Below, in pieces: positions 6,823-32,000 of a DNA stretch of 32,000 nucleotides. The translations under genes were made by a program, and so were the position numbers. This DNA is from Candidatus Nanopusillus acidilobi. Lineage in GTDB: Archaea; Nanobdellota; Nanobdellia; Nanobdellales; Nanobdellaceae. The notes under the pieces are model-generated. The model saw only the letters and a list, made by a program, of their open reading frames with translations, did no database searches and was not told where the DNA came from. Each line of letters begins with the position of its first letter. Positions within the stretch are counted from its first letter, which is position 1. Location: NCBI GenBank assembly GCA_001552015.1, contig CP010514.1, positions 540,001-572,000 of the forward strand. Reading direction: 5' to 3'.

Positions 6823-7617
6823 TTACTTTATAGATAGTATATCGCTATCACCTGGAAGATATTCTAATATGATATTATAATCAACTTTAAAAATATTCTC
6901 CAATTGTTTTGCAATATCAATTGGTTTTTTATTTCCAGGAATTAATATAACATAATTTTTATTATATTTATCTTTTATACTTTCAGGTATTCCTGGAATA
7001 ACATTATAATCTTCAAATGCTAATGCAATTTCCAAATTTACTTTTATATAATTCTTTTCTCCATATATCATAAAAGAACCTTTTTTTAAATACATTCCAG
7101 AAGGTGCCTTTTTTGATACTTGATCTGGATATACATAATATACATCTACAGAAGATAATTTATTCTTCCATGCTCTAGAATATGATCCAACAAATTTTGC
7201 AGCTTCATATATATCTATTTCACTTGCATTTCTTCCATTTTTTAATATACCAAATGGAGATCCAATAATATCTGCATGAAATATCAAATCATTTTTTTCT
7301 AAATATTTATTTATAATAATTTCATTTGTAATAGAATCTTTTCCAGCAATTAATAGAAAATTATTTGTTGTAAACATCCATCTAAATTTCTCATACCATT
7401 TTTTATTTCTCTTAATTTCTTCCTTCTTTTTTTCAATAACTATTTTTTCTTCAATATTATTTAATTTTTCTTCCAATTCTTTTAGTAAATTTTCTATTTT
7501 TTGTTTTTTATTTTTTAATTCTTTTATTTTTTCATATATTTCATTTATATTTTCATATATACTTTTTCTAGTATCAATTTTTATTTCCATTTTTCCAACA
7601 GATATTGTAAAAAGCAC
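6823..7617 (-). CDS. NFACT-R (DUF814) domain protein: coiled coil + RNA-binding half of an FbpA/NEMF/Tae2 (COG1293)-type protein
   Basis: KKWYEKFRWMFTTNNFLLIAGKDSITNEIIINKYLEKNDLIFHADIIGSPFGILK matches the NFACT-R core (..F.W..S.G..I..GR...QNE.L..KY....D...HA...G...V..). It is preceded by a K/E-rich coiled coil and there is no NFACT-N domain. The true start may be the Met at 7590 (MEIKIDTRK). Confidence 0.75.
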   Translation of the reverse strand: MLFTISVGKMEIKIDTRKSIYENINEIYEKIKELKNKKQKIENLLKELEEKLNNIEEKIVIEKKKEEIKRNKKWYEKFRWMFTTNNFLLIAGKDSITNEIIINKYLEKNDLIFHADIIGSPFGILKNGRNASEIDIYEAAKFVGSYSRAWKNKLSSVDVYYVYPDQVSKKAPSGMYLKKGSFMIYGEKNYIKVNLEIALAFEDYNVIPGIPESIKDKYNKNYVILIPGNKKPIDIAKQLENIFKVDYNIILEYLPGDSDILSIK

Positions 7618-8401
7618 ACTTTTTACATTTTTCAGAGAATTTTTTTCCAGGATCTTCTTTTTTATCTATCATATCAATTATTTTATCCTTTATATCAAGT
7701 ATTTTCTTTATTTCATTATTATTTCTAAACTCTATTTCTATTTTATGATTATCTTTTGCATATAATAGTATACCCTTTCTTATATTATAATTTGGAAATT
7801 CATCCTTCAATAATAAATAATATGAATATAATTGTGTAATATGTTCCCTTCTAAAAAAACCAGATTTTATTTCATAAGGTATCATATAATTTTTATATAT
7901 TTCCAATCTATCAATTCTTCCAACTATATTATATTTTAAGGAAGTAACATCAAATTCTGTTTTTATTTTTGGTTCTAAAAATTCCCATAATTCTATTCCA
8001 TATACATCTTTATCTTTCATAAAATTAAATACATTTTTTGCCCTATCTTCTATATCTTTTATTACATAACTATATGCCTTTATTTTTATATCATTTTTAT
8101 CCAAATTTAAATTTTTTATTTGTTCTTCAAATTCTTTTATTGATTCTTCTAATAATTTCATTAAAAAACTATTATATAAATTTAATATTTTTTCATATTC
8201 AAAAAATTCTTTTATATTAAATATTATTTCCTTTTCTTTTTCATTTATTTTATCAAATAAAGAATGAACAATTGATCCAAATATTTTTTGTTCATTATCC
8301 TCTTCAGAATATTCCAAAACTCTTTTTAGATAAACTTTTCTAGGACAGAAAATATAATCTGTTATATCTGTTACTCTAACAAAAATATCATTTAATTCCA
8401 C
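7574..8401 (-). CDS. Cas4-family PD-(D/E)XK nuclease with a 4-Cys Fe-S motif (stand-alone)
   Basis: N-terminal ITDYIFCPRKVYLK, GSIVHSLF, VGRIDRLE, PYEIKSG, QLYSYYLLL (QxxxY) and C-terminal CKKCAFYNIC, which is the full Cas4/DUF83 motif set. No CRISPR array or other cas genes are in the window. Confidence 0.8.
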   Translation of the reverse strand: MELNDIFVRVTDITDYIFCPRKVYLKRVLEYSEEDNEQKIFGSIVHSLFDKINEKEKEIIFNIKEFFEYEKILNLYNSFLMKLLEESIKEFEEQIKNLNLDKNDIKIKAYSYVIKDIEDRAKNVFNFMKDKDVYGIELWEFLEPKIKTEFDVTSLKYNIVGRIDRLEIYKNYMIPYEIKSGFFRREHITQLYSYYLLLKDEFPNYNIRKGILLYAKDNHKIEIEFRNNNEIKKILDIKDKIIDMIDKKEDPGKKFSEKCKKCAFYNICWKNGNKN

Positions 8402-8904: not shown

Positions 8905-9480
8905 ATGGCATTCTATGATACAATTATAACATTGCTGAACAACCTTGGATTCTTTAATGTTATATTACCATTTCTATTAGTTTATGCTATAATGTATGGT
9001 ATATTAAGTAAGTATAAAATACTTGGTGATCCTTTTGCTGAAGGAGATAAAGGAAAAACTACAAGGAGTTTAATATCAATTGTATCTGCAGCTACTGGAT
9101 TTTTTATAGTTGCATCTTCAAATGTTGTATTATCATTAAAAACACTAATTCCATATATAGTATTATTCTTATTAACAGTATTTTTCCTTATATTGGCAAT
9201 TTCTCCATTTTTACAGAAAGAAGAAAAGAGTGGAGAAATACAACTTGGTAATAGAACAAGAACAATATTATTAGTATCTACAATAATTATCTTTACATTA
9301 ATAGTAATATTTATACTTGGCTTATATAATTATATTAATTTATCATTAGCATCTACAGTAATTTCTTCATCACAAACATTTATAGAAACAATAGTAGTTC
9401 TTGCAATAATGTTAGGAATAGCATATTGGGCTGTGAAACCTGAAAAAGGCCAAGGATCAGAACATTCAAAATCAAGATGA
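8905..9480 (+). CDS. Multi-pass membrane protein, paralog 1 of a tandem triplet (unknown family)
   Basis: 191 aa. The N-terminal motif LGFFNVILPFLLVYAIMYGIL is shared with the next two ORFs. It has 4-5 predicted TM helices and a C-terminal ..AYWAVKPEKG tail. Confidence 0.7.
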   Translation: MAFYDTIITLLNNLGFFNVILPFLLVYAIMYGILSKYKILGDPFAEGDKGKTTRSLISIVSAATGFFIVASSNVVLSLKTLIPYIVLFLLTVFFLILAISPFLQKEEKSGEIQLGNRTRTILLVSTIIIFTLIVIFILGLYNYINLSLASTVISSSQTFIETIVVLAIMLGIAYWAVKPEKGQGSEHSKSR

Positions 9481-10106
9481 TAACAAACATAGGTCCATTA
9501 TCACAACAAATTACTTCTATTCAGGTGAATTTTAATCAGATATTATCTCAATTTGGACTCATAGATGTTGTTTTACCATTTTTATTAATATTTTCTTTAG
9601 TATTTATGTTATTAGAATTATCCAATTTATTAAAGACAAGCCCTGATGATGATGTAGGTAGAAAACTAAGTGCTTTATTTGCCTTCGGATTTGCTCTCTT
9701 ATCATTATATAATCAAAATTTAATAAAATGGTTAGTATCTTTTATTCCAAATGCTACTATAGTTATAATTGTATTCTTTTTATTAGCTATTACACTAGCA
9801 CTTACAAATAAAAAGGTACCTGGAGTATTAAGAGCCTTCTTTGCCTTCCTTATTGTAGGAATAATATTATGGCTATCTATAAATTCTTTAAGTATAACAG
9901 GATCTTCTACAAAATCCTCATTAACATATTATTTATTAGGTGAAATTAACTATCTTATGCAATCTGGTACATTATCATCATTGCTTACAGTTTTAATTAT
10001 ATTTATATTCCTAATCTTAGTAATGATGTGGGCAGTTAGTGGCGGAGAAAAGAAAGAAGAGGAGGAAGGAGAAATTAAGGGTCCATTATTAGTAAGATCT
10101 AGATAA
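9477..10106 (+). CDS. Multi-pass membrane protein, paralog 2 of the tandem triplet
   Basis: 209 aa with FGLIDVVLPFLLIFSLVFMLL and a C-terminal ..MMWAVSGGEKKEEEE tail. ATGA overlap with paralog 1. Confidence 0.7.
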   Translation: MITNIGPLSQQITSIQVNFNQILSQFGLIDVVLPFLLIFSLVFMLLELSNLLKTSPDDDVGRKLSALFAFGFALLSLYNQNLIKWLVSFIPNATIVIIVFFLLAITLALTNKKVPGVLRAFFAFLIVGIILWLSINSLSITGSSTKSSLTYYLLGEINYLMQSGTLSSLLTVLIIFIFLILVMMWAVSGGEKKEEEEGEIKGPLLVRSR

Positions 10107-10107
10107 A

Positions 10108-10752
10108 ATGGACATCTCGTCATTTATTTATACTTTATTTTCAGAATATGGTATATTTACATTTTTAGCACCATTTTTATTAGTATTTCCATTATTATAT
10201 GGATCTCTTAGAAAAATTGGTTTATTTGGAAGAGATAACCCTAATAAAGAAAAATTATATGCAGTAATTTCCATAGTAATAACATTTTATTATCTATATG
10301 ATATATCTGCTGTTATATTTACATCAAACTTTATATCATTCTTCTTTTTTGAAATGCTTGTTATATTTTTCATTTTAATGATAATTGCATTAATGGCTGA
10401 TATGTCAGAACCTTATGAAGGAGATGAAGAATTTCAGAAATATAAACAATCTTCTCATAATGTTATTGTCGGACTTATAACTCTTGCTGTTCTATTTGCA
10501 TTCCTATATGCATCTTCAGTAAATTTCAGTGGATTTGGAGAAGCTGCTCAAAATATAATATTAGAAATAATAGTTATATTACTATCTAGTGGTTTACTTC
10601 CAGTTATTGTAATAATAGGAATTTTAATTGGAGTTATATATTGGTTAATTCATAAACCAGGACCTCAAAATAAAAAAGTCAAGGGAAAATACCTTTTCAT
10701 AGCACCTGCAGAAGCTCTATATAATATACCAGAAAATCTAAAAAAGAAATAA
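10108..10752 (+). CDS. Multi-pass membrane protein, paralog 3 of the tandem triplet
   Basis: 214 aa with YGIFTFLAPFLLVFPLLYGSL and a C-terminal ..IYWLIHKPGPQNKK tail. It starts 1 nt after the paralog 2 stop. Confidence 0.7.
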   Translation: MDISSFIYTLFSEYGIFTFLAPFLLVFPLLYGSLRKIGLFGRDNPNKEKLYAVISIVITFYYLYDISAVIFTSNFISFFFFEMLVIFFILMIIALMADMSEPYEGDEEFQKYKQSSHNVIVGLITLAVLFAFLYASSVNFSGFGEAAQNIILEIIVILLSSGLLPVIVIIGILIGVIYWLIHKPGPQNKKVKGKYLFIAPAEALYNIPENLKKK

Positions 10753-10757
10753 TAATC

Positions 10758-10766
10758 ATTATAAAA
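10758..10766 (+). promoter_or_regulatory. TATA box (ATTATAAAA) positioned for the ATG at 10787
   Basis: Centred 25 nt upstream of the ATG at 10787, which opens a 10-codon frame that continues into the CBS ORF only after a -1 shift (see findings). Confidence 0.4.
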
Positions 10767-10950
10767 GTTTTTTATTATATAGATTAATGACAGTATTTAT
10801 ATCTAAGGATAAAAAATAGGAGATATTGTCGAATATATAAAAAAAGGGGAAGATATAATTGTAACAGATAATAATGGAAAATTCTTAGGAGTATTAGAGA
10901 ACTCTAAAGCAATTAGATATTTATACAGACCAGATACAAAAATTGAAAGG

Positions 10951-11892
10951 GTGATAAATAAAATAAAACCATTAAAAATAAATAATATAATCGATATAGT
11001 AGAGAAATTAATCAATTCCAATTCCAGAATAGCTTTTGTAAGAGAAGACGGACAAATAAAGATAGTTAATATATATGATATATTAAAAGAAATATTAAAT
11101 GATAAAGATGTATTAGGAAAAATGAATTTAAATGAAATAATAAATGAAGCTTATACAATATATGAAGATGAAAATATTAAAAAAGCAATTGGTATAATGA
11201 AGGATAAAGGTGTATCAAGATTAATAGTATTAGATAAAAATAATAAAGTAGCTGGAATAATTTCATTAACAGATATTCTAAAATATATGCTAATTGATAA
11301 TAGTAACAACATAAGGACTCCGAATGAAAAGGATTTTGATATAAAGATAAAATCTATAATGAATAGTAAATTAATATTTGCAAATAAAGATGATAGTATA
11401 GAGAAAATAATTAATTTAATGATAGAAAATAGGGTATTTTCATTGCCAATATTGGATAAAGGAAATTTAGTTGGTATAATAACTGCAAAAGATATATTAA
11501 TAAGTTATTTACAATATAAAAAGGAAAAAGAATATAATTTAGTTGTCCATGGAGTATCCTTAGATGAAATAGATATAAATTATATAAGGAAATTGTATGA
11601 GAAATTTTACAAAAAATATAGAAATGTTTTAGGAGAAAATATAAGATTATTATTACATATTAAAAAGATAAATGAAGATAAAGAAAATAAAAAAATATAT
11701 TATCAAATTAAAGCAAAATTAATATATAATAATGGTAAATTCTCAATTGATGATCATGGATATGATCTATATTCAACAATAAAGGACATATTTTCAATAT
11801 TAGAAAACGAAGCAGAAAAAGTAAAACATAAAAATGAAGAAAAGTATATGCTTGAAAGTATGTTTAAAAATGATATAATATATTATCTATAA
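10951..11892 (+). CDS. CBS-domain (Bateman module) protein; the true N-terminus is probably further upstream (10787) across a frameshift
   Basis: Repeated CBS blocks (..GVSRLIVLDKNNKVAGIISLTDILKYM.., ..NRVFSLPILDKGNLVGIITAKDILISY..). The frame stays open upstream to 10813 and encodes another CBS-like block (IGDIVEYIKKGEDIIVTDNNGKFLGVLENSKAIRYL) with no ATG. The track start at 10951 is a GTG. Confidence 0.8.
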   Translation: MINKIKPLKINNIIDIVEKLINSNSRIAFVREDGQIKIVNIYDILKEILNDKDVLGKMNLNEIINEAYTIYEDENIKKAIGIMKDKGVSRLIVLDKNNKVAGIISLTDILKYMLIDNSNNIRTPNEKDFDIKIKSIMNSKLIFANKDDSIEKIINLMIENRVFSLPILDKGNLVGIITAKDILISYLQYKKEKEYNLVVHGVSLDEIDINYIRKLYEKFYKKYRNVLGENIRLLLHIKKINEDKENKKIYYQIKAKLIYNNGKFSIDDHGYDLYSTIKDIFSILENEAEKVKHKNEEKYMLESMFKNDIIYYL

Positions 11893-11893
11893 G

Positions 11894-12493
11894 ATGATAT
11901 TAATACCTGGAGATAGCTTAAAGAAAAAGGATATTAATTCATATGAAAGGGAGAATAATTACTATTCAAAATATATATTATTAGTAAACGAGGATAAAAC
12001 TACAAGGCTTTTTGGATATTATATGCCAGAAGTGAATGATATTGTAATTGGAAAAGTAATTGATGTATTATCTAATGGATGGATAATTGATATAAATTCT
12101 CCATATGTAGGAAAACTATCCTTAAAAGATACTGGAGTAGATCCTAGTGATTTATATACCTATGGTGATTATATATTATGCCAAATTATAAAAATGACAA
12201 AAAATAAATTAATAGATTTAGAGATTAAGAAAAAGGAAAAATTAAATGATGGATTAATATTAAAAGTAGATCCTGCAAGAATTCCAAGATTGATTGGAAA
12301 GAATTCTTCAATGTTAAATTTAATTAAAGAAGATTTAAAGATAGATATAATAATTGGAAAAAATGGTAGAGTATATTTAAATGGCGATATAAATAATGTA
12401 TCAAAGGCAGTAGATATTATCAAATTTGTTATAAATAATTCTTATAAAAGGGGCTTAACTGAAAAGGTTAAAGAAATTTTGGAAAATAAATAA
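11894..12493 (+). CDS. rrp4: Exosome complex RNA-binding subunit Rrp4 (S1 + KH)
   Basis: N-terminal ILIPGDSL, S1 block DIVIGKVIDVLSNGWIIDINSPYVGKLSL, and KH block ARIPRLIGKNSSMLNLIKEDLKIDIIIGKNGRVYL. It lies immediately upstream of rrp41, as in the archaeal exosome operon. Confidence 0.85.
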   Translation: MILIPGDSLKKKDINSYERENNYYSKYILLVNEDKTTRLFGYYMPEVNDIVIGKVIDVLSNGWIIDINSPYVGKLSLKDTGVDPSDLYTYGDYILCQIIKMTKNKLIDLEIKKKEKLNDGLILKVDPARIPRLIGKNSSMLNLIKEDLKIDIIIGKNGRVYLNGDINNVSKAVDIIKFVINNSYKRGLTEKVKEILENK

Positions 12494-12496
12494 GAA

Positions 12497-13252
12497 ATGG
12501 TAAAAAGATTTGATGGCAGGGAATATAATGAAGTAAGAAAAATAAATATAAAGCTAAATGTAGTAGATAATGCAAAAGGATCTGCAATATTTTCATTTGG
12601 TGATACTGTTGCATTAGCTGCTGTATATGGACCAAAACCTTCAAAAATGTCTTTAGATTATGATAAAGCATTCTTAAGGGTTAAATATAATATGCTAACA
12701 TTTTCTACACCTGAAAGAAAGAAACCTACGCCAGGTAGAAGAGAAATTGAATTATCTGAAGCAATTAAGAGAGCATTAGAACCTGCATTATTATTAGAAG
12801 AAATCCCTGGAAGTATTATAGATGTATATATTGAAATATTGAATGCAGATGCTGGAACAAGGACTGCAAGTATAAATGCTGCATCTTTGGCATTATCCTT
12901 AGCAGGTATTCCAATGAAAGATTTGGTAGTAGGCCTAGCAGTTGGAAAGATTGGAGAAAAAATTGTAGCAGATTTAAATAAAGAAGAAGAAGATTATGAT
13001 TCAGAAAAATTAAGGAAAGATCCTGAAAAATCAAAATATATAGAATATTATGGAGAAGGAAGAGCTACAGATATACCAGTTGCTATAATTCCTTCTGAGA
13101 AGAAAATTACTTTAATACAATTAGATGGAGAAATTTCAAATAAAGAATTAAATGATGCATTAAATCTAGCATTAGAAAAAGCTTTAGAAATAAAAGATCT
13201 AATGAAGAATAGTATATTAAAGCATTTATCTTCAGATAATTTTATTTATTAG
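12497..13252 (+). CDS. rrp41: Exosome complex exonuclease Rrp41 (RNase PH domain)
   Basis: RFDGREYNEVRKI..AKGSAIFSFGDTVALAAVYGP, PGRREIELSE, NADAGTRTASINAASLAL. It carries a ~17-aa insertion (DSEKLRKDPEKSKYIEYY) before the ..G.ATDIPVA block relative to the usual Rrp41 layout. Confidence 0.92.
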   Translation: MVKRFDGREYNEVRKINIKLNVVDNAKGSAIFSFGDTVALAAVYGPKPSKMSLDYDKAFLRVKYNMLTFSTPERKKPTPGRREIELSEAIKRALEPALLLEEIPGSIIDVYIEILNADAGTRTASINAASLALSLAGIPMKDLVVGLAVGKIGEKIVADLNKEEEDYDSEKLRKDPEKSKYIEYYGEGRATDIPVAIIPSEKKITLIQLDGEISNKELNDALNLALEKALEIKDLMKNSILKHLSSDNFIY

Positions 13253-13269
13253 TATTTTTTATAACAACC

Positions 13270-13277
13270 TTTATAAA
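13270..13277 (+). promoter_or_regulatory. TATA box (TTTATAAA) for the 13300 gene
   Basis: Centred 27 nt upstream of the ATG at 13300. Confidence 0.45.
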
Positions 13278-13299
13278 GTACAAAATATTCTTAAATCAT

Positions 13300-14559
13300 A
13301 TGAAGAAAAATTATAAATATCTGATGATGTTAATTTTTATTTTAAACTTTACAAATATTTATTCACAATCAAATAGTTATGCTTATGCATGGTATAACGA
13401 ATATATAGGTACATTATATATAGATAAACGATTATTAGAATCGTCTGCTAGTATGCTTTCCCAATATTTAGGCCCTTTAGCACCAATTATTATAACAAAT
13501 TTACCATATTTAGTCTCATTTTTTTCTTTATTTTTTATATTTAAAAGATTCTTAAATATTATTCATGAAGATTTAGGACATAAAAATACTATAATTGCAG
13601 TAATAATATCTGCAATCACTACATATCTCTTTTTGCCTTTTGTTATACCTATATTAATTATTGCATTTATAATAAAAGTATTTAGAATTGGTAAATCTAA
13701 ATTGGAAAGTTTTAAAGAAAACTTAGGCAAGATTAATCCTGGATTAAGGGGTATTTTCTCAAGAGCAACATCAGATATTAGGGATTTTGATAAAAATACA
13801 AATAAAATTCTAAAAGATATAAATAAAATAGATAAAATAATAAATTATCCTCCCATAAGAAACTTATTAAATTCTATAGAAAAAGATATAGAAACTTTAA
13901 ATAATATAATATCCCACATATTAAAAGAAACTGAAAACGAAAAATTAACTCCATATAGATTAAAAGCTTATTTACTAAAATTCAATATGACATATAATAA
14001 TGCTATAAATAAAATCAAACAGTTAAATGGAATAATAAATACTATGTTTAGCAATCCTCCTTTATTAAGAAGGATTGGAAATAGGATATTCAGAACAAAT
14101 AAATTTACACCAAAGTATTTGATGGAATTAAGAAATATACCAAACGACTTGACTGCTAGATTAAATACTACATACAAAGAAGGTCAGAAAATATTCGAAG
14201 ATTTAAATAGATTGTTAATTTCTGCAGAAGCTATTAGTAGGAAATATGGAAGTGAAATAAATAATACTTTAAAAAGAAATCTTAATAATAATGCTCTTTT
14301 ATCTCTAGGTAATAAAGCTCCAATAAGAGAAATACAAAAAATAGAAAACACTACCGCTGCTATTTATAAAGATTGGAGGATATCTCCATTAAAAAAATTG
14401 GAAATATCATCTAAAATGTATAAATCTACAAAAAATTTATCTAAATCTTTACGTAAATTTAAAGGAAATCCAAAAAGATTATTAAACTTGACCGACAAAT
14501 ATTATAAGAAAACAATTAAATCAATTGGAAGTATTTCAAAAACCCCTGAAAAACGTTAA
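13300..14559 (+). CDS. Signal-peptide / 2-3 TM / long basic helical-domain protein (paralog A, unknown function)
   Basis: 419 aa. The signal peptide ends ..FTNIYSQS and TM helices lie around residues 60-130. The rest is a K/N/I-rich, predicted helical/coiled region. Same architecture and size as the ORF at 14822-16102. Confidence 0.7.
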   Translation: MKKNYKYLMMLIFILNFTNIYSQSNSYAYAWYNEYIGTLYIDKRLLESSASMLSQYLGPLAPIIITNLPYLVSFFSLFFIFKRFLNIIHEDLGHKNTIIAVIISAITTYLFLPFVIPILIIAFIIKVFRIGKSKLESFKENLGKINPGLRGIFSRATSDIRDFDKNTNKILKDINKIDKIINYPPIRNLLNSIEKDIETLNNIISHILKETENEKLTPYRLKAYLLKFNMTYNNAINKIKQLNGIINTMFSNPPLLRRIGNRIFRTNKFTPKYLMELRNIPNDLTARLNTTYKEGQKIFEDLNRLLISAEAISRKYGSEINNTLKRNLNNNALLSLGNKAPIREIQKIENTTAAIYKDWRISPLKKLEISSKMYKSTKNLSKSLRKFKGNPKRLLNLTDKYYKKTIKSIGSISKTPEKR

Positions 14560-14601
14560 TTAGAGCTAATTTACCAATCTTTCTAAACCTAGAAAAATAT
14601 G

Positions 14602-14666
14602 AAATTCAAATAAAGAATTAAACGATCATTAAATCTAGAATTAGAAAAAGCTATAGAAATAAATTA
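14602..14666 (+). pseudogene. Relic copy of the 3' end of rrp41 (non-coding fragment)
   Basis: 14605-14663 matches 13135-13194 (rrp41 codons ..SNKELNDALNLALEKALEIK) with 3 substitutions and a 1-nt deletion (about 93% identity). Weaker similarity extends on both sides (~13100-13225 vs ~14570-14695). The deletion breaks the frame. Confidence 0.8.
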
Positions 14667-14790
14667 AATTATGAAAGAAACAAACTTAAATACATATAAA
14701 GTCGGTGCTTTATAACTTTTTATTTAATTATTTAATATTTTTTATTTAATTTTTCTATATTTTCTCTCCTTTGTTATAAATTATAAAAAA

Positions 14791-14798
14791 TTTATAAA
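14791..14798 (+). promoter_or_regulatory. TATA box (TTTATAAA) for the 14822 gene
   Basis: Centred ~27 nt upstream of the ATG at 14822. Confidence 0.45.
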
Positions 14799-14821
14799 TT
14801 TCAACAAATTTTTATAACTAA

Positions 14822-16102
14822 ATGAAAGGTATAAATAATATTAATAAGAAGCTATTAATAACTATATTTACTTTTTTATTTCTAATAAGGTTTATATATT
14901 CACAATATCCGACAGGAATATCTCCACAGAATAATGCGGTTAGTAGTTTAGAATCAAATTCTATTATTCAATGGATTATTACATCTTCAACTAATGGTTA
15001 TTCAACTGTAGCTCGATATTTAGCTAATTTTATATCTATTAAGGGAATACCAATCTATGTTTGGTCTATTATAACATTTTTAATGGCTACTTTATTCTTT
15101 ATTGCAATATATATATATCTCTTTGAAATATTTACACAAAGAACTGGAATATCCGAAAGCGAAACAATGAAAAAAGCAAAGATATTGCTTATATTTGCCT
15201 TAAGTGTATTTTCTGCAATAGCAATAGGTTTTGCCATACCATTTTTATTTAATCTTTATGGATTTATTTTATTGATACTTTTATTAATAGCTTTATTTTT
15301 CTTTGGAAGAGCTGCAGTTTCTTATGGAAAAGGCTTTCATTATGCAGCTAAATCATTTGCAGCCAATGTAGAAAAAGATTTATTAGAAGTAGAAAGAGAA
15401 TTAAAAGAAGCAAGAAAAAATCTTTCTGAACAAGATGTAAGATATCTAGAAGAAGGAATAGAAAAAGTTAATAGTATTTATAATGAAGTAAGAAAAGATT
15501 TTAATAATGCAGAGACGAAATTTCAAAATATTTTATCTCATTTAGAACTTGCATACAAAGCATTTATTACTAATTTCATAAATAGATGCGAAGCATACTT
15601 TAACCAACAACATCTTTCACGCAATCAAAGGAAGGAAAAAGCTAAATTTATTAGAGACTTAGCAGAAAAAAGAGATAGAATGAATCGCCAAAAGATATTA
15701 AATACCAAAAAATCACCAAAAGATCTTTATAATGAGATACTAAGTGAGATTGGTAATCTTTATTATCTTAAAAGTTATGAATCAGAATTAAGAAAGCTAC
15801 TGCATATTAGCTATATATTTATTTTTCATTCTTCACAGAGTCCACATACTCGAATATTTAGAGATATACAAGATACAATAAATGAATATGAAAAAGCAAG
15901 AAACTCACTAATGAGATTTTATGGATTTGAAAATGGATTTAAAAGAGATATTAACGTAAGATTTAGGTATTTTTTCAGTGCTCCTGATAATAGAAAATAT
16001 GATATTGGTATATTATCTGCATTAGATAAATCAAAAAATTCGATAGATAGAATAGAAAAAATAATTAATGAAAGAATACAATTTTTAAAGCATCTTCTTT
16101 AA
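14822..16102 (+). CDS. Signal-peptide / 3 TM / long helical-domain protein (paralog B, unknown function)
   Basis: 426 aa. The signal peptide ends ..LIRFIYSQY and there are three TM helices. The remainder is a long charged helical region (..EKDLLEVERELKEARKNLSEQDVRYLEEGIEKV..). Confidence 0.7.
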   Translation: MKGINNINKKLLITIFTFLFLIRFIYSQYPTGISPQNNAVSSLESNSIIQWIITSSTNGYSTVARYLANFISIKGIPIYVWSIITFLMATLFFIAIYIYLFEIFTQRTGISESETMKKAKILLIFALSVFSAIAIGFAIPFLFNLYGFILLILLLIALFFFGRAAVSYGKGFHYAAKSFAANVEKDLLEVERELKEARKNLSEQDVRYLEEGIEKVNSIYNEVRKDFNNAETKFQNILSHLELAYKAFITNFINRCEAYFNQQHLSRNQRKEKAKFIRDLAEKRDRMNRQKILNTKKSPKDLYNEILSEIGNLYYLKSYESELRKLLHISYIFIFHSSQSPHTRIFRDIQDTINEYEKARNSLMRFYGFENGFKRDINVRFRYFFSAPDNRKYDIGILSALDKSKNSIDRIEKIINERIQFLKHLL

Positions 16103-16103
16103 T

Positions 16104-17261
16104 TTATTTGTTTTCTTCAATACTAAATTTTTTAATTGCTAAACTTTCTGCATAATCATCTATATCCGTTGTAATTATATATCCAATAGATACTTCATGC
16201 AATTTATGACCAGCTCTACCAATTCTTTGTATTAACCTTGTAACCTGTCTAGGTGAATTATATTGAATTACAGCATCAACATATCCAATATCTATTCCAA
16301 GTTCTAAAGAAGATGTTGCAATAATTGCCTTAATTTTCCCTTCTTTAAATAATCTTTCATTTCTTTCCCTTACTTCTCTTGATAAAGAACTATGATGTAT
16401 TTCAATCTTATATTCAGGTAACCAAACCTTAAATCTTGAAGACAACAATTCTGCCATTTCTCTTGTATTTACAAATATTATTACAGATTTATGTTTATCC
16501 AATATTTCCTTTATTTTTCTTAAACTCCATGCTATTTTTGGGTTCCAATTATATTTTCTTGCCAATTCTAAATCTTCTTCACTAATTTCCGGATAATATA
16601 CTTCTATATGATATTTTTTCTCTGCATACCAATATGCAATTTTATAATTCCTATATCCAAAAATAAATTTTGCAGCTTCATCCAAATCTCCAATTGTTGC
16701 AGATAATGCAATTCTTTGAAATTCTCCAGCATAATTTACTAATCTTTCCAAACCTAAAGATAATTGTATTCCTCTTTTTTCATTTAATAATTCATGTAAT
16801 TCATCTACAATAACATATTTTACAGTTTTTAATTGTTCTCTTAATCTTTTTCCTAAAAATAATATCTGAAAAGTTTCTGGAGTTGTTATTAAAAATTCTA
16901 CAGGTTTTTTAGATAATCTAGCTCTTTCTTTTTCTTCTGTATCCCCATGCCTAACTGCGACAGATATACCCAAATTATCACCCCACCATTTTATTCTATC
17001 TAATACATCTCTATTCAATGCTCTTAATGGTGATATATAAATTCCCAATAATTGATTTTCAATACCTTTTTCCTTTAATTCCAATATTTTCGAAAATACA
17101 GGTAATATTGCAGCTTCTGTTTTTCCAGATCCTGTGGGAGCAACAATTAAAGTATTATTTCCATTTAATATTTCTGGAATTGCTATTTTTTGAATTGGAT
17201 AGAAATCCTCAAATTTTTTAAAGAATAATTCCTCTATTTTCTTATTTAAATTATATTCCAT
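16104..17261 (-). CDS. lhr: Lhr-type SF2 DEAH-box helicase, core (RecA1+RecA2) only
   Basis: FYPIQ (Q motif), APTGSGKTEAA (I), DELHEL (II), LSATIGD (III), QRIGRAGH (VI). At 385 aa it covers only the N-terminal helicase core of Lhr proteins. Its own TATA box lies ~30 nt upstream (revcomp of ~17285-17298). Confidence 0.85.
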   Translation of the reverse strand: MEYNLNKKIEELFFKKFEDFYPIQKIAIPEILNGNNTLIVAPTGSGKTEAAILPVFSKILELKEKGIENQLLGIYISPLRALNRDVLDRIKWWGDNLGISVAVRHGDTEEKERARLSKKPVEFLITTPETFQILFLGKRLREQLKTVKYVIVDELHELLNEKRGIQLSLGLERLVNYAGEFQRIALSATIGDLDEAAKFIFGYRNYKIAYWYAEKKYHIEVYYPEISEEDLELARKYNWNPKIAWSLRKIKEILDKHKSVIIFVNTREMAELLSSRFKVWLPEYKIEIHHSSLSREVRERNERLFKEGKIKAIIATSSLELGIDIGYVDAVIQYNSPRQVTRLIQRIGRAGHKLHEVSIGYIITTDIDDYAESLAIKKFSIEENK

Positions 17262-22033: not shown

Positions 22034-23525
<1,492 letters not shown>

Positions 23526-23526
23526 A

Positions 23527-23543
23527 ATTCCGCTGCAATCCCC
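23527..23543 (+). other. 3' strand of the pre-16S rRNA processing stem
   Basis: Complementary to 21969-21988 (see that feature). Confidence 0.7.
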
Positions 23544-29464: not shown

Positions 29465-32000
29465 AATATATAGTCTCACGGGAACTTCAAGCGGTCGGCT
29501 GAACTCCTTTTCGGAGCTTACACCGCCGCTCTGAGTCGGATCTTTTATCCGACCCCTTAACGGCTGCCTATTTTTGAGGAGGGCTTCACCCTTAGATGCT
29601 TTCAGGGCTTATCCCCTAGGGCGTAGCTACCGGGCATGCCCTTCACGGACAGCCCGTATACCAGAGGCCCCGGCCCACCGTTCCTTTCGTACTAGGTGGA
29701 CCTTCCCCTCAGGCAGCCAGCACTTCCGACAGTTATAACCGAACTGCCTCGCGGCGTTCTGAACCCATCTCACGATCCCCTTTAATGGGTGGACACCCCC
29801 ACCCTTGGCGGCTTCTGCACCACCAGGATGGGGAGAGACGACATCGATGTCGCAAACCGCGGGGTCAATGGGGGCTCTCGCCCGCGACGGCGCTGTTACC
29901 CCCGGAGTAGCTTTTCCGCCAGCCCGTACCCCCACTAGGGAGAGTACGGGGTTCGCTAGGCCCGGGTTTCCCCCCTGTGCCCCTTGATGGTCAGGGCACA
30001 GTCAAGCCAGCTTTTGGCCTTGTCCTCTACGGCGGATTCCTGACCCGCCTGAGCTGACCTTATGGACCCTGCCGATACCTTTTCGGCAGGGTGCCGCCCC
30101 AGCCAAACCGCCCACCTGCTGCTGTCCCCCTTCGGGTTAGCCCTGAAGAACCTAGAGGCGGGTGTTTCATCGTCGCATCCTTCCTACCTAGCGGCAGGAA
30201 TTCATTGCTCCCCGCTACCCTACACACCAGGTTCTTCAGAGCAACAACAGGCTACGGTTAAGCTTCACGGGGTCCTTCTTACCCATCGGAAGTCCCTGGC
30301 CTTCTCACCAGGATAGCTTTTCAGGGGGCGCCGGCCCGGGACAGTGACGGGCTAGTTACGTCGTTCGCAGAGCCAGCATTTAACTGGCAAGGCATTACGC
30401 TACCTTAAGAGGGTCAGAGTTACCCCCGCCGTTTACCGGTCCTTACCCCCCTTGAACGGGGGATTCAGATACCGGTGCTGAGCAGACGTCACCCCCAGTA
30501 CAAACCCTTTCGGGCTTGCTGGGAGCTATGTTTTTGGTAAACAGTCCGCCCGCCCTTGTCACTGCGACCTGCGGTCCACACCGCAGGCATCCCTTCTCCC
30601 GAAGTTACGGGACCAATTTGCCAAGTTCCCTAGACCGGCTTGACCCCCACGGCCTTAGGCTGCTCACCCAGGGGACCTATTCTGGACTTCGGTACGATCG
30701 CCCCGAATCGCATCCTTTCCCTTTTCATTGCCGGAAGGCCTCAGCATAACCCTTTCGGGCCCATCAGGGTTTAGACCGGTTCTCGCCATGACGGCACTCC
30801 CCGGTCTTATCCCCCTTAGCACAGTAAGTGGGTTTTACCCCACCCCCGTGTATGCCTAGCCTTCCAGGTCGGGAAAGGATGTTGCGTTACCGCATCTATC
30901 GGGGCGGTAGGGGAATATTAACCCCTTTCCCTTTCTCCAGACTCCTCTCGGAGCCTGGATTAGGATCGACTAACCCCAGGCTGATCTTCATTGCCTGGGA
31001 AACCTTTCCCCCTTCGGCCGACGGGATTCTCACCCGTCTGATTCTTACTACCGCGGGGATCTGCATTCCCAACGGCTCCAGGCTTCCTTTCGGGAACCCT
31101 TCTAGGCCATCGGGACGCCCGCCTACCTCACGCTGGCAATGCCAGCGGACCGAGGTCTCGGCGGCTGGCTTAGACCCGTCCGTTTTCGGAGCCTATCCCC
31201 TCGTCGGGTGAGTTGTTACACACTCCTTAGATGATAGCCACTATTAGGCCCACATCCCCGATGTCTTAGGGGACAGACTCCTTCAACGTCGTTCAGCCAG
31301 CACTTTGGGGCCTTAACCTCGGTCTCGGTTGTTCCCGTCTCGGAATTGCGGCTTTCCCGCAATTCCCGTTTCCCGGGCTACGGACCCTATGGCTTCGGAG
31401 TTGGACTCCATACGGAAACCCGTACAGAATCCGTCTCTCTACACCATAGGGATCCTAACCCGAGACCTGGCTAGGGTCAGTTTCGGCGGGGACCGGCTAT
31501 GACCGGGCCCGAGTGGCTTTTCACCTCTACCCCGAGGTCATGAGAGAGGTAAGCCCCACCTCTTCGGGCCTCCACGGGAAACCCCGCTTCGCCCTGCCCC
31601 GGGATAGATCGCCCGGTTTCCGGTCATACCCGAGTGACTAAACCGCCCTTATGGGACGGTGCCCCTCACCTGGAAACCAGGTTACGGGCTTTCGGTTTCC
31701 CTATGGCTTCGGTATAAACCTTAACCTCGCCACTCGGGTATACTCCCCCGCAAGTTCTTCAAAACTCACGGTAGAACTAGCTAGCACCTTATCTGGTACT
31801 CACCCGTCACCAGATTTTCCCAGATAAGGTGCTTAACTAGCCCTACCAGACAATCCCCGCCCGGTTTCAGGCTCTTTTCACCCCCTACCAAGGGTTCTTT
31901 TCACCTTTCGGTCGCCCTACTAATACGCTATCGGACTCGGAAAGTATTTAGCCTTGGTGACTAGTTTCCCCCAAATTCCCGACGGAAATTCAACCGCCGG
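29465..32000 (-). rRNA. rrl: 23S (LSU) rRNA, 3' ~2.5 kb (the 5' end lies beyond the window)
   Basis: The minus strand contains CUGAAAGCAUCUAAG (revcomp of 29593-29607), the sarcin-ricin loop region (29680-29693), PTC segments (GGGGGUAACAG.., GAUGUCG.., UGGGUUCAGAACG..CAGUUCGG), and H69-H71 (..GUAACUCUGACCCUCUUAAGGUAGCG..). The 3' end is estimated from alignment to ..CCGUGAGGCUUAACCUU. Confidence 0.95.

Follow-up and report, generated by a model that had tools for sequence, protein, structure and literature searches.

Sets of variable genes that lie between conserved flanking genes, are exchanged by homologous recombination and are devoid of mobility genes are referred to as minimal mobile elements or replacement islands; the former were reportedly described in Neisseria by Saunders and Snyder and the latter, as 'replacement' flexible genomic islands, by Rodriguez-Valera and colleagues. 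Integrative elements targeting the 3' ends of transfer RNA (tRNA) or protein genes form a different group, in which the element's own copy restores the gene and the original 3' end is displaced. The locus considered here belongs to the Nanoarchaeota, which are obligate ectosymbionts, and lies in a 32,000-nucleotide (nt) stretch of Candidatus Nanopusillus acidilobi (contig CP010514.1, positions 540,001 to 572,000; G+C content 28%), the whole of which is referred to below as the window. Here the 3' end of rrp41, the gene for the RNase PH-type subunit of the exosome, is present a second time, as a relic separating two open reading frames (ORF1 and ORF2) located in front of a convergent DEAD-box helicase gene. 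We consider it quite probable that this relic is the displaced 3' end of rrp41 in a cassette locus shuffled by recombination, and that it originated in one illegitimate recombination with the topology of a duplication, by which a block carrying ORF1 was stacked in the locus.

In its behaviour the locus matches replacement genomic islands and minimal mobile elements. Variable gene content was found between the same conserved flanks, these being housekeeping genes (rrp41 and the DEAD-box helicase gene) with at least eight alternative contents among close relatives; integrases and transposases are absent from the locus, haplotype blocks seem to be reassorted with breakpoints in conserved sequence, and the cargo probably consists of envelope- or surface-type proteins under diversifying selection. 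Unlike the systems described before, the locus is archaeal (DPANN) and not bacterial, its left boundary lies within the last ~17 codons of an essential gene, with each cassette class bringing its own Rrp41 tail, and an internal relic of the flank divides it into what would be two separately exchangeable slots. The cassette locus is more interesting than the relic, which is itself ordinary but serves as a marker: it dates and orients the rearrangement, preserves the ancestral Rrp41 C-terminus and shows crossovers within ~68 nt of homology in natural nanoarchaeal populations.

The repeat and its junction with the helicase gene

For comparison, about 90 related loci (designated L with a number where they need to be told apart) were obtained from a scan of a genome collection using Rrp41 and from a metagenome scan (77 more, mainly from hot springs), the syntenic loci of the genome collection belonging to Candidatus Nanopusillus and Nanobsidianus (Nanopusillaceae, Nanoarchaeota). 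The gene upstream of the repeat had been read as rrp41 from the sequence alone, and this identification holds: both RNase PH domains of archaeal exosome Rrp41 are present (PF01138 RNase_PH, 1.6e-34, and PF03725 RNase_PH_C, 7e-10, together spanning amino acids (aa) 12-227 of 251) and rrp4 is located directly 5'. Look-ups of the exact Rrp41, ORF1 and ORF2 proteins in databases returned no record.

Codons 212-234 of rrp41 (13131-13198, the core) are repeated at 14601-14666, the two copies flanking ORF1 (13300-14559) as had been reported in the sequence-only reading. Its alignment of 13135-13194 with 14605-14663 was reproduced with exactly 3 substitutions and one 1-nt deletion, and an additional 1-nt deletion was found directly to the left of this range (GAAATTTC versus GAAA-TTC). 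The weaker similarity that it described on both sides of the core did not survive: on the left, 13100-13130 and 14570-14600 are not homologous, the segment 14564-14591 being derived from the DEAD-box helicase gene (16728-16756), and on the right the extension gives z = 0.8-1.6 when tested alone, which is not significant. For the repeat as such, the local alignment score is 105, compared with 27.8 ± 3.6 (maximum 41) for 500 dinucleotide-preserving shuffles, about 21 standard deviations (sd) lower, and 14601-14666 is the top match to the core query in the whole window on both strands. Chance similarity of low-complexity AT-rich sequence, for which a genome with 28% G+C and its plentiful short AT-rich matches provides some ground, is ruled out by this score; taken together with an assembly artefact (a collapsed or chimeric contig), the probability of such an origin is vanishingly small, as 31 assemblies obtained independently in several studies, some of them single-cell genomes and metagenome-assembled genomes (MAGs), have identical layout and junction, and the relic of other genomes translates to an Rrp41 C-terminus.

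Evidence for a duplication-type rearrangement, of which the repeat had been proposed to be the footprint, comes from the junction on the left side of the relic. All ORF1-bearing loci of sufficient length contain the relic, and it begins at codon 212 in each of them. The ~50 nt directly 5' of it are 90-96% identical, in the same orientation, to the interior of the live DEAD-box helicase gene located 2 kb downstream, and encode helicase residues ~167-183 (LGLERLVNYAGEFQR). This fragment is found at full length in L001, L002 and L004, and just 28 nt of it are left in the window (14564-14591, matching 16728-16756). The joint ...CATAATTTACCAATCTTTCYAAACCTAGAGAAATAY/GAAATTTCAAAT... (the slash marking the fusion point, the relic side starting with GAAATTTC) is identical in all 31 filled loci, whichever gene comes next, and thus has a single origin. 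A downstream sequence fused head-to-tail to an upstream one constitutes the novel joint of a tandem duplication, whereas two alignable whole copies are missing, as only the 68-nt core and ~50 nt of the helicase gene are duplicated.

In these respects the locus resembles junctions of tandem duplications formed by illegitimate (microhomology-mediated) recombination, with one head-to-tail joint between the helicase interior and rrp41 codon 212, truncated and decaying copies of both flanking genes, and further microhomology deletions nearby. It differs from such duplications in that the 'copies' carry genes that can not be aligned with each other and in that most of the duplicated helicase part is gone; the event must therefore have joined different haplotypes, or else replacement and deletion came after it. 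One deletion can be followed among the loci: ~260 nt of the spacer between ORF1 and the relic are missing from the window, L017, L018, L033 and L062, apparently lost between short GC(A)TAATTT repeats, leaving 41 nt in the window and 40-80 nt in this subclade, compared with ~300 nt in most other loci. In the window, this deletion also cut the helicase fragment short.

Some further observations concern this spacer. The position of the ORF1 stop codon varies (L004, L068, L080), and some ORF1 genes are extended by 100-150 nt of sequence that elsewhere belongs to the non-coding spacer. Decayed open stretches (e.g., NDKI.FKKLKSLEGSINK...) with a faint resemblance to the C-terminus of ORF1 are present in the consensus of the spacer. 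A derivation of the ~250-nt spacer from decayed 3' sequence of the helicase gene or from the end of another cassette was tried and rejected, the searches matching only equivalent spacers.

The order of events and the recombination route taken are what we infer from the junction and from the haplotypes described below. Across Nanopusillaceae, the space between rrp41 and the convergent helicase gene is a hypervariable cassette locus with alternative, very divergent classes of predicted membrane-anchored helical proteins (ORF1, ORF2 and a third class, X) and an optional gene pair, L6a/L6b. One ancestral illegitimate recombination would have joined the helicase interior (about aa 167) to rrp41 codon 212, either through unequal crossover between two haplotypes with different cassette classes or through duplication within one genome and subsequent replacement of one slot. 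The ORF1 block (rrp41 core, ORF1-linked tail, ORF1 and 3' flank) would thereby have been stacked before the resident block, consisting of an rrp41 3' end and its cassette; most of the duplicated helicase part would have been deleted later, and a further ~260 nt lost in the subclade of the window. As an alternative source, the helicase piece at the junction may be 'filler' acquired by template switching. Once in place, the two direct ~68-nt cores, together with the conserved flanking genes (rrp41 and the helicase gene), could provide the homology for RadA-type homologous recombination, by which second-slot cassettes would be swapped along with the linked relic of an rrp41 tail, ORF1-less empty sites would be made or maintained, and relic and live gene would occasionally be converted into one another.

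Cassette classes and the Rrp41 tails linked to them

In the sequence-only reading ORF2 was taken for a distant paralog of ORF1, for which we found no direct evidence: BLASTP gives E = 0.47 and hhalign a probability of 0.3% with 5-sequence profiles and of 5% with profiles of 34 and 24 sequences. The sole link between the two is transitive, via class X, found at the same site in L005-L007 and others, with hhalign probabilities of 90% for ORF1-X (E = 1.7e-6, 228 columns) and 94% for ORF2-X; ORF2 also matches the single genes that the distant L009 and L010 have at this site. All classes share an architecture consisting of a signal-like N-terminus ending in Y/F-S/A-Q, 2-4 transmembrane (TM) helices and a charged helical C-terminal half, with two TM segments in ORF1 and about three in ORF2, each following the signal-like N-terminus. 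An AlphaFold2 (AF2) model of ORF1 is an all-helical bundle with a predicted local distance difference test score (pLDDT) of 73, reaching 85-98 over most of residues ~140-330. A Foldseek search of the PDB with this model gave no informative match (best E = 0.11), and nothing but coiled-coil noise below threshold came from comparing the cassette proteins with Pfam, PADLOC and PHROGs.

Both families consist of intact genes, with 76 clusters of ORF1 homologues (49-93% identity) and 97 of ORF2 homologues (40-96%). Within classes, synonymous divergence (dS) is 0.17-0.25 for ORF1 and 0.31-0.44 for ORF2, diversity at 4-fold degenerate sites is 0.12-0.14, and the ratio of non-synonymous to synonymous divergence (dN/dS) is 0.7-1.3 overall. 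This ratio is 0.3 in the N-terminus of ORF1 and 1.35-1.5 in its C-terminal third, and 0.5-0.9 in the N-terminal part of ORF2 and 1.1-2.0 in its C-terminal half; summarised over both classes, it is 0.3-0.6 for the N-terminal signal/TM portion and 1.1-2.0 for the C-terminal domain. For the flanking genes, dN/dS is 0.04-0.2 and dS relative to the window about 0.22-0.5; among the loci, 88-99% identity is found for the CBS-domain protein, Rrp4, Rrp41, the DEAD-box helicase, the metallophosphoesterase, L35Ae and a 576-aa protein. Since the within-class dS is on the timescale of the flanks and ORF1 and ORF2 are nevertheless unalignable, the classes must be older than the junction: ORF1, ORF2 and X are ancient allelic lineages of one locus and not products of the junction event. 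ORF1 and ORF2 are real, fast-evolving proteins that are probably associated with the envelope, and we infer both their membrane location and their role.

These data also bear on the explanation put first in the sequence-only reading, a tandem duplication of the rrp41 3' end and its downstream gene within one genome, after which ORF1 and ORF2 would have diverged extremely fast. The junction does have the topology of a tandem duplication, the two proteins are alike in length and architecture, the dN/dS of both is near 1 over the full length and exceeds 1 in the C-terminal parts, and profiles link them through class X. We nevertheless regard this explanation as unlikely, given that the right breakpoint is within the helicase gene and not past the cassette gene, and that the relic evolves at a neutral rate. 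The divergence between relic and gene is close to the neutral divergence between genomes, over which paralogues with dN/dS (omega) of ~1 should remain about 40-60% identical, like within-class orthologues, and ORF1 and ORF2 are unalignable. Each of them is, moreover, nearer to class X than to the other, and the site is occupied by genes of the ORF2 and X classes in genomes in which the junction was never present, the distant L009 and L010 among them.

Translation of the relic makes it possible to determine which of the two rrp41 ends is the older one. As it stands, the relic of the window gives a frameshifted translation with stop codons; the relics of L001 and L004 can be translated in frame, as EISNKELNDALNLALEKSLEIKEIMKNTILNTYKASTL followed by a stop codon, and so can that of the window once its two 1-nt gaps are repaired (...IMKETNLNTYKVGAL and stop). 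The C-terminus of the relic (...EIKEIMKNTILNTYKASTL) has its stop codon at the same position as rrp41 of the outgroups L005, L006 and L008-L010, Rrp41 of junction-less genomes ending in ...HEYKVSNL (L005) or ...L.(Y/N)F.I(T/N)KL (L008-L010). In all ORF1-bearing genomes, the live Rrp41 ends in ...KHLSS(D/N/SG)NFIY, for instance ...KHLSSDNFIY. As both the stop codon and the tail of the relic match outgroup Rrp41, it is the live tail that is derived, and the downstream copy at 14601-14715 is the displaced rrp41 3' end of ancestral type, from codon 212 to the old stop. A derivation of the live tail from the ancestral one through a 1-nt frameshift and read-through into the old 3' untranslated region (3'UTR) was considered and dropped, the tail-only alignment giving z = 0.8-1.6.

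The relic tail of the window falls into one cluster with the live L041 tail and all relics preceding ORF2, and every cassette class is tied to its own form of the ~17 C-terminal residues of Rrp41. The extreme C-terminus of Rrp41 thus appears to be dispensable, or at least tolerant of replacement. In addition, L047, L048, L056 and L072, in which ORF1 is absent and ORF2 directly follows rrp41, have another tail (...CKEIIYKFQQIYITK), unlike that of L041 (...NTYKASTL), meaning that at least four tail variants of the essential Rrp41 are in circulation.

Given the ectosymbiotic lifestyle of these archaea and the surface-protein variation already known in them, the cassettes are concrete candidates for what determines attachment to the host or the range of hosts; co-sorted single-cell data could be used to correlate the class of cassette with the identity of the host. 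The variation in question was reported by Jarett et al. 2018 (PMC6142677), who found elevated non-synonymous variation among the hypothetical surface proteins of these organisms. Our literature search found no description of the locus, and the word 'exosome' occurs nowhere in the text of that paper (PMC6142677).

Arrangements and exchange at the cassette site

The arrangements found between rrp41 and the helicase gene, within flanks that are 88-99% identical, are ORF1-relic-ORF2 (the window and about 20 others), ORF1-relic-X, ORF1-relic-L6a/L6b-X, ORF1-relic-L6a/L6b-ORF2, X alone, L6a/L6b-X, ORF2 alone and deletion derivatives of the L007 type, which retain the ORF1-linked tail and an N-terminal remnant of ORF1. 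Sequences of the tail and 3'UTR, starting where the core ends, cluster according to the gene that follows and not according to whether they are live or relic, which shows the linkage of tail and cassette. The live end of L041, an ORF1-less locus with rrp41 followed by ORF2, is near-identical to the relic of L020 and groups with the relics preceding ORF2; the relics of L032, L070, L079 and L024 group with live L6a-type ends (L032 and L070 matching live L046, L052 and L006), and those of L033 and L021 with live X5-type ends (L033 matching live L035, L036 and L074). L041 also represents an empty site: its left part aligns to the filled L018 as far as the core and its right part from the relic core onwards, the two overlapping by 76 nt. 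L033 has the spacer deletion of the window's subclade and its relic-core variants (CAAAA-TTC..., GCTATAGAA), yet it carries an X5-type tail and X5 where the others are of ORF2 type, a mosaic that places a crossover where the relic core ends on its 3' side.

Gene and relic cores were shown to exchange sequence. The differences between the two cores of the same genome sum to 215, compared with 239.3 ± 5.6 in permuted pairings, none of 20,000 permutations being as low, and private variants common to gene and relic include TTGG (L004, L021, L082), GAACTAAAT (L020, L022, L023, L067) and T-CATTAG (L032). This resembles the concerted evolution of genes and pseudogenes through gene conversion, relic cores being nearest to the live core of their own genome and sharing private variants with it, but the tracts here are at most 68 nt long and much of the 'freshness' of the relics comes from haplotype exchange between genomes and not from conversion within one genome. 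The co-variation of tail and cassette, the empty site and the exchange between gene and relic indicate that it is homologous recombination, with its crossovers in the ~68-nt core, that reassorts the cassettes, and the tail-cassette linkage, the L033 recombinant and the permutation test are together what would place the locus among systems exchanged in this way.

The sequence-only reading had proposed recombination through this segment with att-like behaviour. Recombination stands, on the grounds just given, whereas behaviour of the att type, involving an integrase, does not: neither an integrase nor an association with viruses was found. In the corresponding explanation, ORF1 would be carried by a site-specific integrative element with the rrp41 3' end as its target, for which the element supplies a replacement, the repeats being attL and attR. 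As in elements inserted into gene 3' ends, the live gene has a substituted 3' end unlike the displaced one, followed by an insert of a single gene and by the displaced original as a direct repeat; filled and empty sites are present in the population and, as comparison of L041 with L018 has shown, differ by the insert and one copy of the repeat, the overlap being the repeat itself (76 nt); and the same module precedes four different downstream blocks. We consider this explanation very unlikely. Unlike such elements, the locus has no recombinase and no element-like cargo: no tyrosine or serine recombinase Pfam domain was detected in the 1.5-kb module, the 32-kb window or the cassette genes, and the Pfam searches, which covered the flanks as well, gave no integrase, transposase or other mobility gene. 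Neither relatives of ORF1 nor the junction sequence were found in IMG/VR viral contigs (plasmid collections were not searched), so that this search gave no sign of the module as an independent replicon or virus. No tRNA gene is present in the window, which thus offers no tRNA/att-type target. The right end of the module is a piece of the neighbouring helicase gene, that is, local chromosomal DNA, pointing to local rearrangement; the right edge of the repeat is where conservation of rrp41 ends and not a defined att core, and the differences between repeat copies vary by genome in conversion-like patterns.

Several points weigh against the single stacking event with later shuffling that we favour. 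A relic-less haplotype in which rrp41 with the new tail is followed by ORF1 and the helicase gene was not found among the loci, so that the proposed parent with ORF1 alone is missing from the sample. The junction contains only ~50 nt of the helicase gene, where a clean tandem duplication predicts ~650 nt, and the remaining ~250-nt spacer matches nothing but equivalent spacers in blastn, tblastn and nhmmer profile searches; an extra deletion or an origin as templated filler (template switching) must therefore be assumed. Most loci are metagenome contigs from mixed populations, and some of the mosaicism could be chimeric assembly, although single-amplified genomes (SAGs) and MAGs agree. The permutation signal could come partly from hybrid repeats made at integration and not from ongoing conversion, and crossover positions were deduced from few informative sites in a 68-nt AT-rich segment.

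Further observations were made on individual arrangements. The optional minus-strand pair L6a (237 aa) and L6b (256 aa), located at 10755-12298 (-) in L006, has equivalents in L024, L032, L046, L049, L050, L052, L054, L070 and L079, situated after the rrp41 end or relic and before the X or ORF2 cassette; the proteins are highly charged, lack TM segments and give only sub-threshold coiled-coil-like matches, and both genes look frameshifted in L049 and L050. L007, L040, L042, L043, L066 and L075 are deletion or recombinant derivatives without the relic, the order in the L007 type being ORF1-linked rrp41 tail, N-terminal remnant of ORF1 (about 23-26 codons), remnant of the L6b N-terminus and X-type gene. 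In L031 an ORF1-type 3'UTR is joined straight to an X5-type upstream region. L069, a 1.1-kb contig, contains at 417-1103 the N-terminal part of ORF1 followed by an inverted copy of ORF1 residues 61-215, which is more likely to be an artefact of chimeric or fold-back assembly or of amplification than an inverted duplication.

The relic, its flanks and neighbouring features

Diversity was measured as mean pairwise differences among the 22 ORF1-relic-ORF2 loci. It is 0.144 in the relic core, 0.146 in the helicase fragment, 0.185 in the relic tail and 0.178 in the spacer, compared with 0.140, 0.176 and 0.224 at 4-fold degenerate sites of rrp41, the helicase gene and rrp4, respectively; the only segment below neutral diversity, and the most conserved non-coding one, is the former 3'UTR 5' of ORF2 (0.087). 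Relic cores differ by a mean of 10.3 positions per 68 nt and live cores by 4.1, the relic being 2.5 times more diverse, and premature stops or frameshifts are present in 18 of the 31 relics. The relic is thus a non-functional pseudogene fragment that drifts neutrally, under no selection. The premise of the sequence-only reading that it is unexpectedly well conserved does not hold, its diversity being that of 4-fold degenerate sites; the contrast with ORF1 and ORF2 arises because these are far older than the junction.

A function of its own, which had also been suggested, could be that of a regulatory RNA, of an insulator or terminator acting on ORF1 or of a portion of the ORF2 promoter, or the relic could encode a small peptide. 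About 12 of the 31 relics do retain an intact frame to the old stop, all filled haplotypes have a relic, and it is situated directly 5' of the conserved ORF2 promoter region. However, its diversity (0.144-0.185) is within the range of 4-fold degenerate sites (0.14-0.22), more than half of the copies are disrupted, the cores exceed live cores in diversity to the extent given above, and an Rfam scan of the window found only ribosomal RNAs (rRNAs) and no family at the relic; neither above-neutral conservation nor a known RNA family therefore marks it. Intact copies are accounted for by recent derivation from live 3' ends, and conservation begins only past the old stop, in a segment that genomes lacking ORF1 likewise have 3' of their live rrp41. 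On this evidence, a function for the relic is highly improbable.

A more far-reaching proposal is that the relic and the helicase fragment constitute a selected 'portable homology' landing pad, which would turn a one-slot island into a two-slot, recombinase-free cassette system; we think this rather unlikely. If true, surface proteins interacting with the host could be combined and swapped independently in each slot in Nanopusillaceae populations, and ORF1 could be excised and re-inserted via the 68-nt direct repeats, as in an analogue of integrons or shufflons driven by homologous recombination alone.

The coordinates of the features are given in Table 1. The TTTATAAA boxes at 13270-13277 and 14791-14798 are putative promoters of ORF1 and ORF2, respectively, judging from the archaeal TATA consensus, and the region between rrp41 and ORF1 has a mean identity of 93% in five genomes.

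Table 1. Features of the rrp41-helicase locus, with positions in the window
Feature	Coordinates	Strand	Remarks
rrp4 (exosome cap subunit), conserved left flank	11894..12493	+	Pfam RRP4_S1 and KH_6; 88-99% aa identity across related loci
rrp41 (RNase PH-type exosome subunit), live gene	12497..13252	+	Pfam RNase_PH and RNase_PH_C; dN/dS 0.08-0.2
Live repeat core, rrp41 codons 212-234	13131..13198	+	Aligned to 14601-14666; last conserved stretch of the gene, putative crossover zone
Live rrp41 C-terminal tail, derived, ...MKNSILKHLSSDNFIY (stop)	13199..13252	+	Haplotype-specific, invariably ORF1-linked (tail cluster 3)
rrp41-ORF1 intergenic region	13253..13299	+	TATA-like TTTATAAA at 13270-13277, 23 nt 5' of the ORF1 ATG
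ORF1, 419 aa, predicted membrane-anchored all-helical protein, first slot	13300..14559	+	Cassette class ORF1
Relic fragment of DEAD-box helicase gene, left side of junction	14564..14591	+	Copy of 16728-16756 (helicase aa ~167-183); blastn and local alignments
Relic copy of rrp41 core (codons 212-234)	14601..14666	+	Two 1-nt deletions and 4 substitutions relative to live copy
Relic of ancestral-type rrp41 tail	14667..14715	+	Old stop TAA at 14713-14715; ORF2-linked tail class (...NTYK.S.L, stop)
Former rrp41 3'UTR, present ORF2 upstream region	14716..14821	+	TATA-like TTTATAAA at 14791-14798, 24 nt 5' of the ATG
ORF2, 426 aa, predicted membrane protein, second slot	14822..16102	+	Cassette class ORF2
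DEAD-box helicase gene, conserved right flank, convergent	16104..17261	-	Pfam DEAD 4e-42 and Helicase_C 5e-25; 94-99% aa identity in related loci

The absence of rrp42 had been associated with a rearrangement at the rrp41 3' end. It is indeed absent from its place next to rrp41, as from the rest of the window, and of the operon context rrp4-rrp41-rrp42 only the upstream part is found, with rrp4 directly 5'. No second RNase PH gene follows rrp41 in any Nanopusillaceae locus, including distant relic-less ones, and the more distant nanoarchaeon L012 retains the order rrp4-rrp41-(455-aa gene)-rrp42. The relic is therefore unrelated to the break after rrp41, which is old and common to the whole family. 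Cluster 2 DPANN archaea encode Rrp4, Rrp41 and Rrp42 and lack Csl4 (PMC7414124).

Elsewhere in the window, a complete 16S rRNA gene at 22034-23527 (+) and a 23S rRNA gene at 29466-32000 (-), cut by the window end, were identified with Rfam ~6 kb apart; with genes for a tRNA-guanine transglycosylase, ribosomal protein S19, two T2SS-F/FlaJ-like proteins and a T2SS-E ATPase between them, and on opposite strands, the two are unlinked. A gene for a Cas4/PD-(D/E)XK-type nuclease (Cas_Cas4 1e-19; 7574-8401, -) overlaps the start of a gene with an NFACT-R RNA-binding domain (6823-7617, -) by 44 nt; neither a CRISPR array nor any further cas gene was noticed in the window. Located 5' of the CBS-rrp4-rrp41 genes are three successive small ORFs (191, 209 and 214 aa; 8905-10752, +) with overlapping or adjacent stops and starts, which have sub-threshold matches only (e.g., T4SS-pilin-like, E = 0.004) and may encode small membrane or pilin-like proteins. 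On the other side of the locus, the intergenic region between the helicase and metallophosphoesterase genes is 736 nt long in L001 (5649-6384), compared with 173-266 nt in the window and L002-L004, and holds an extra insert of ~500 nt, making it a second indel-prone spot near the locus.

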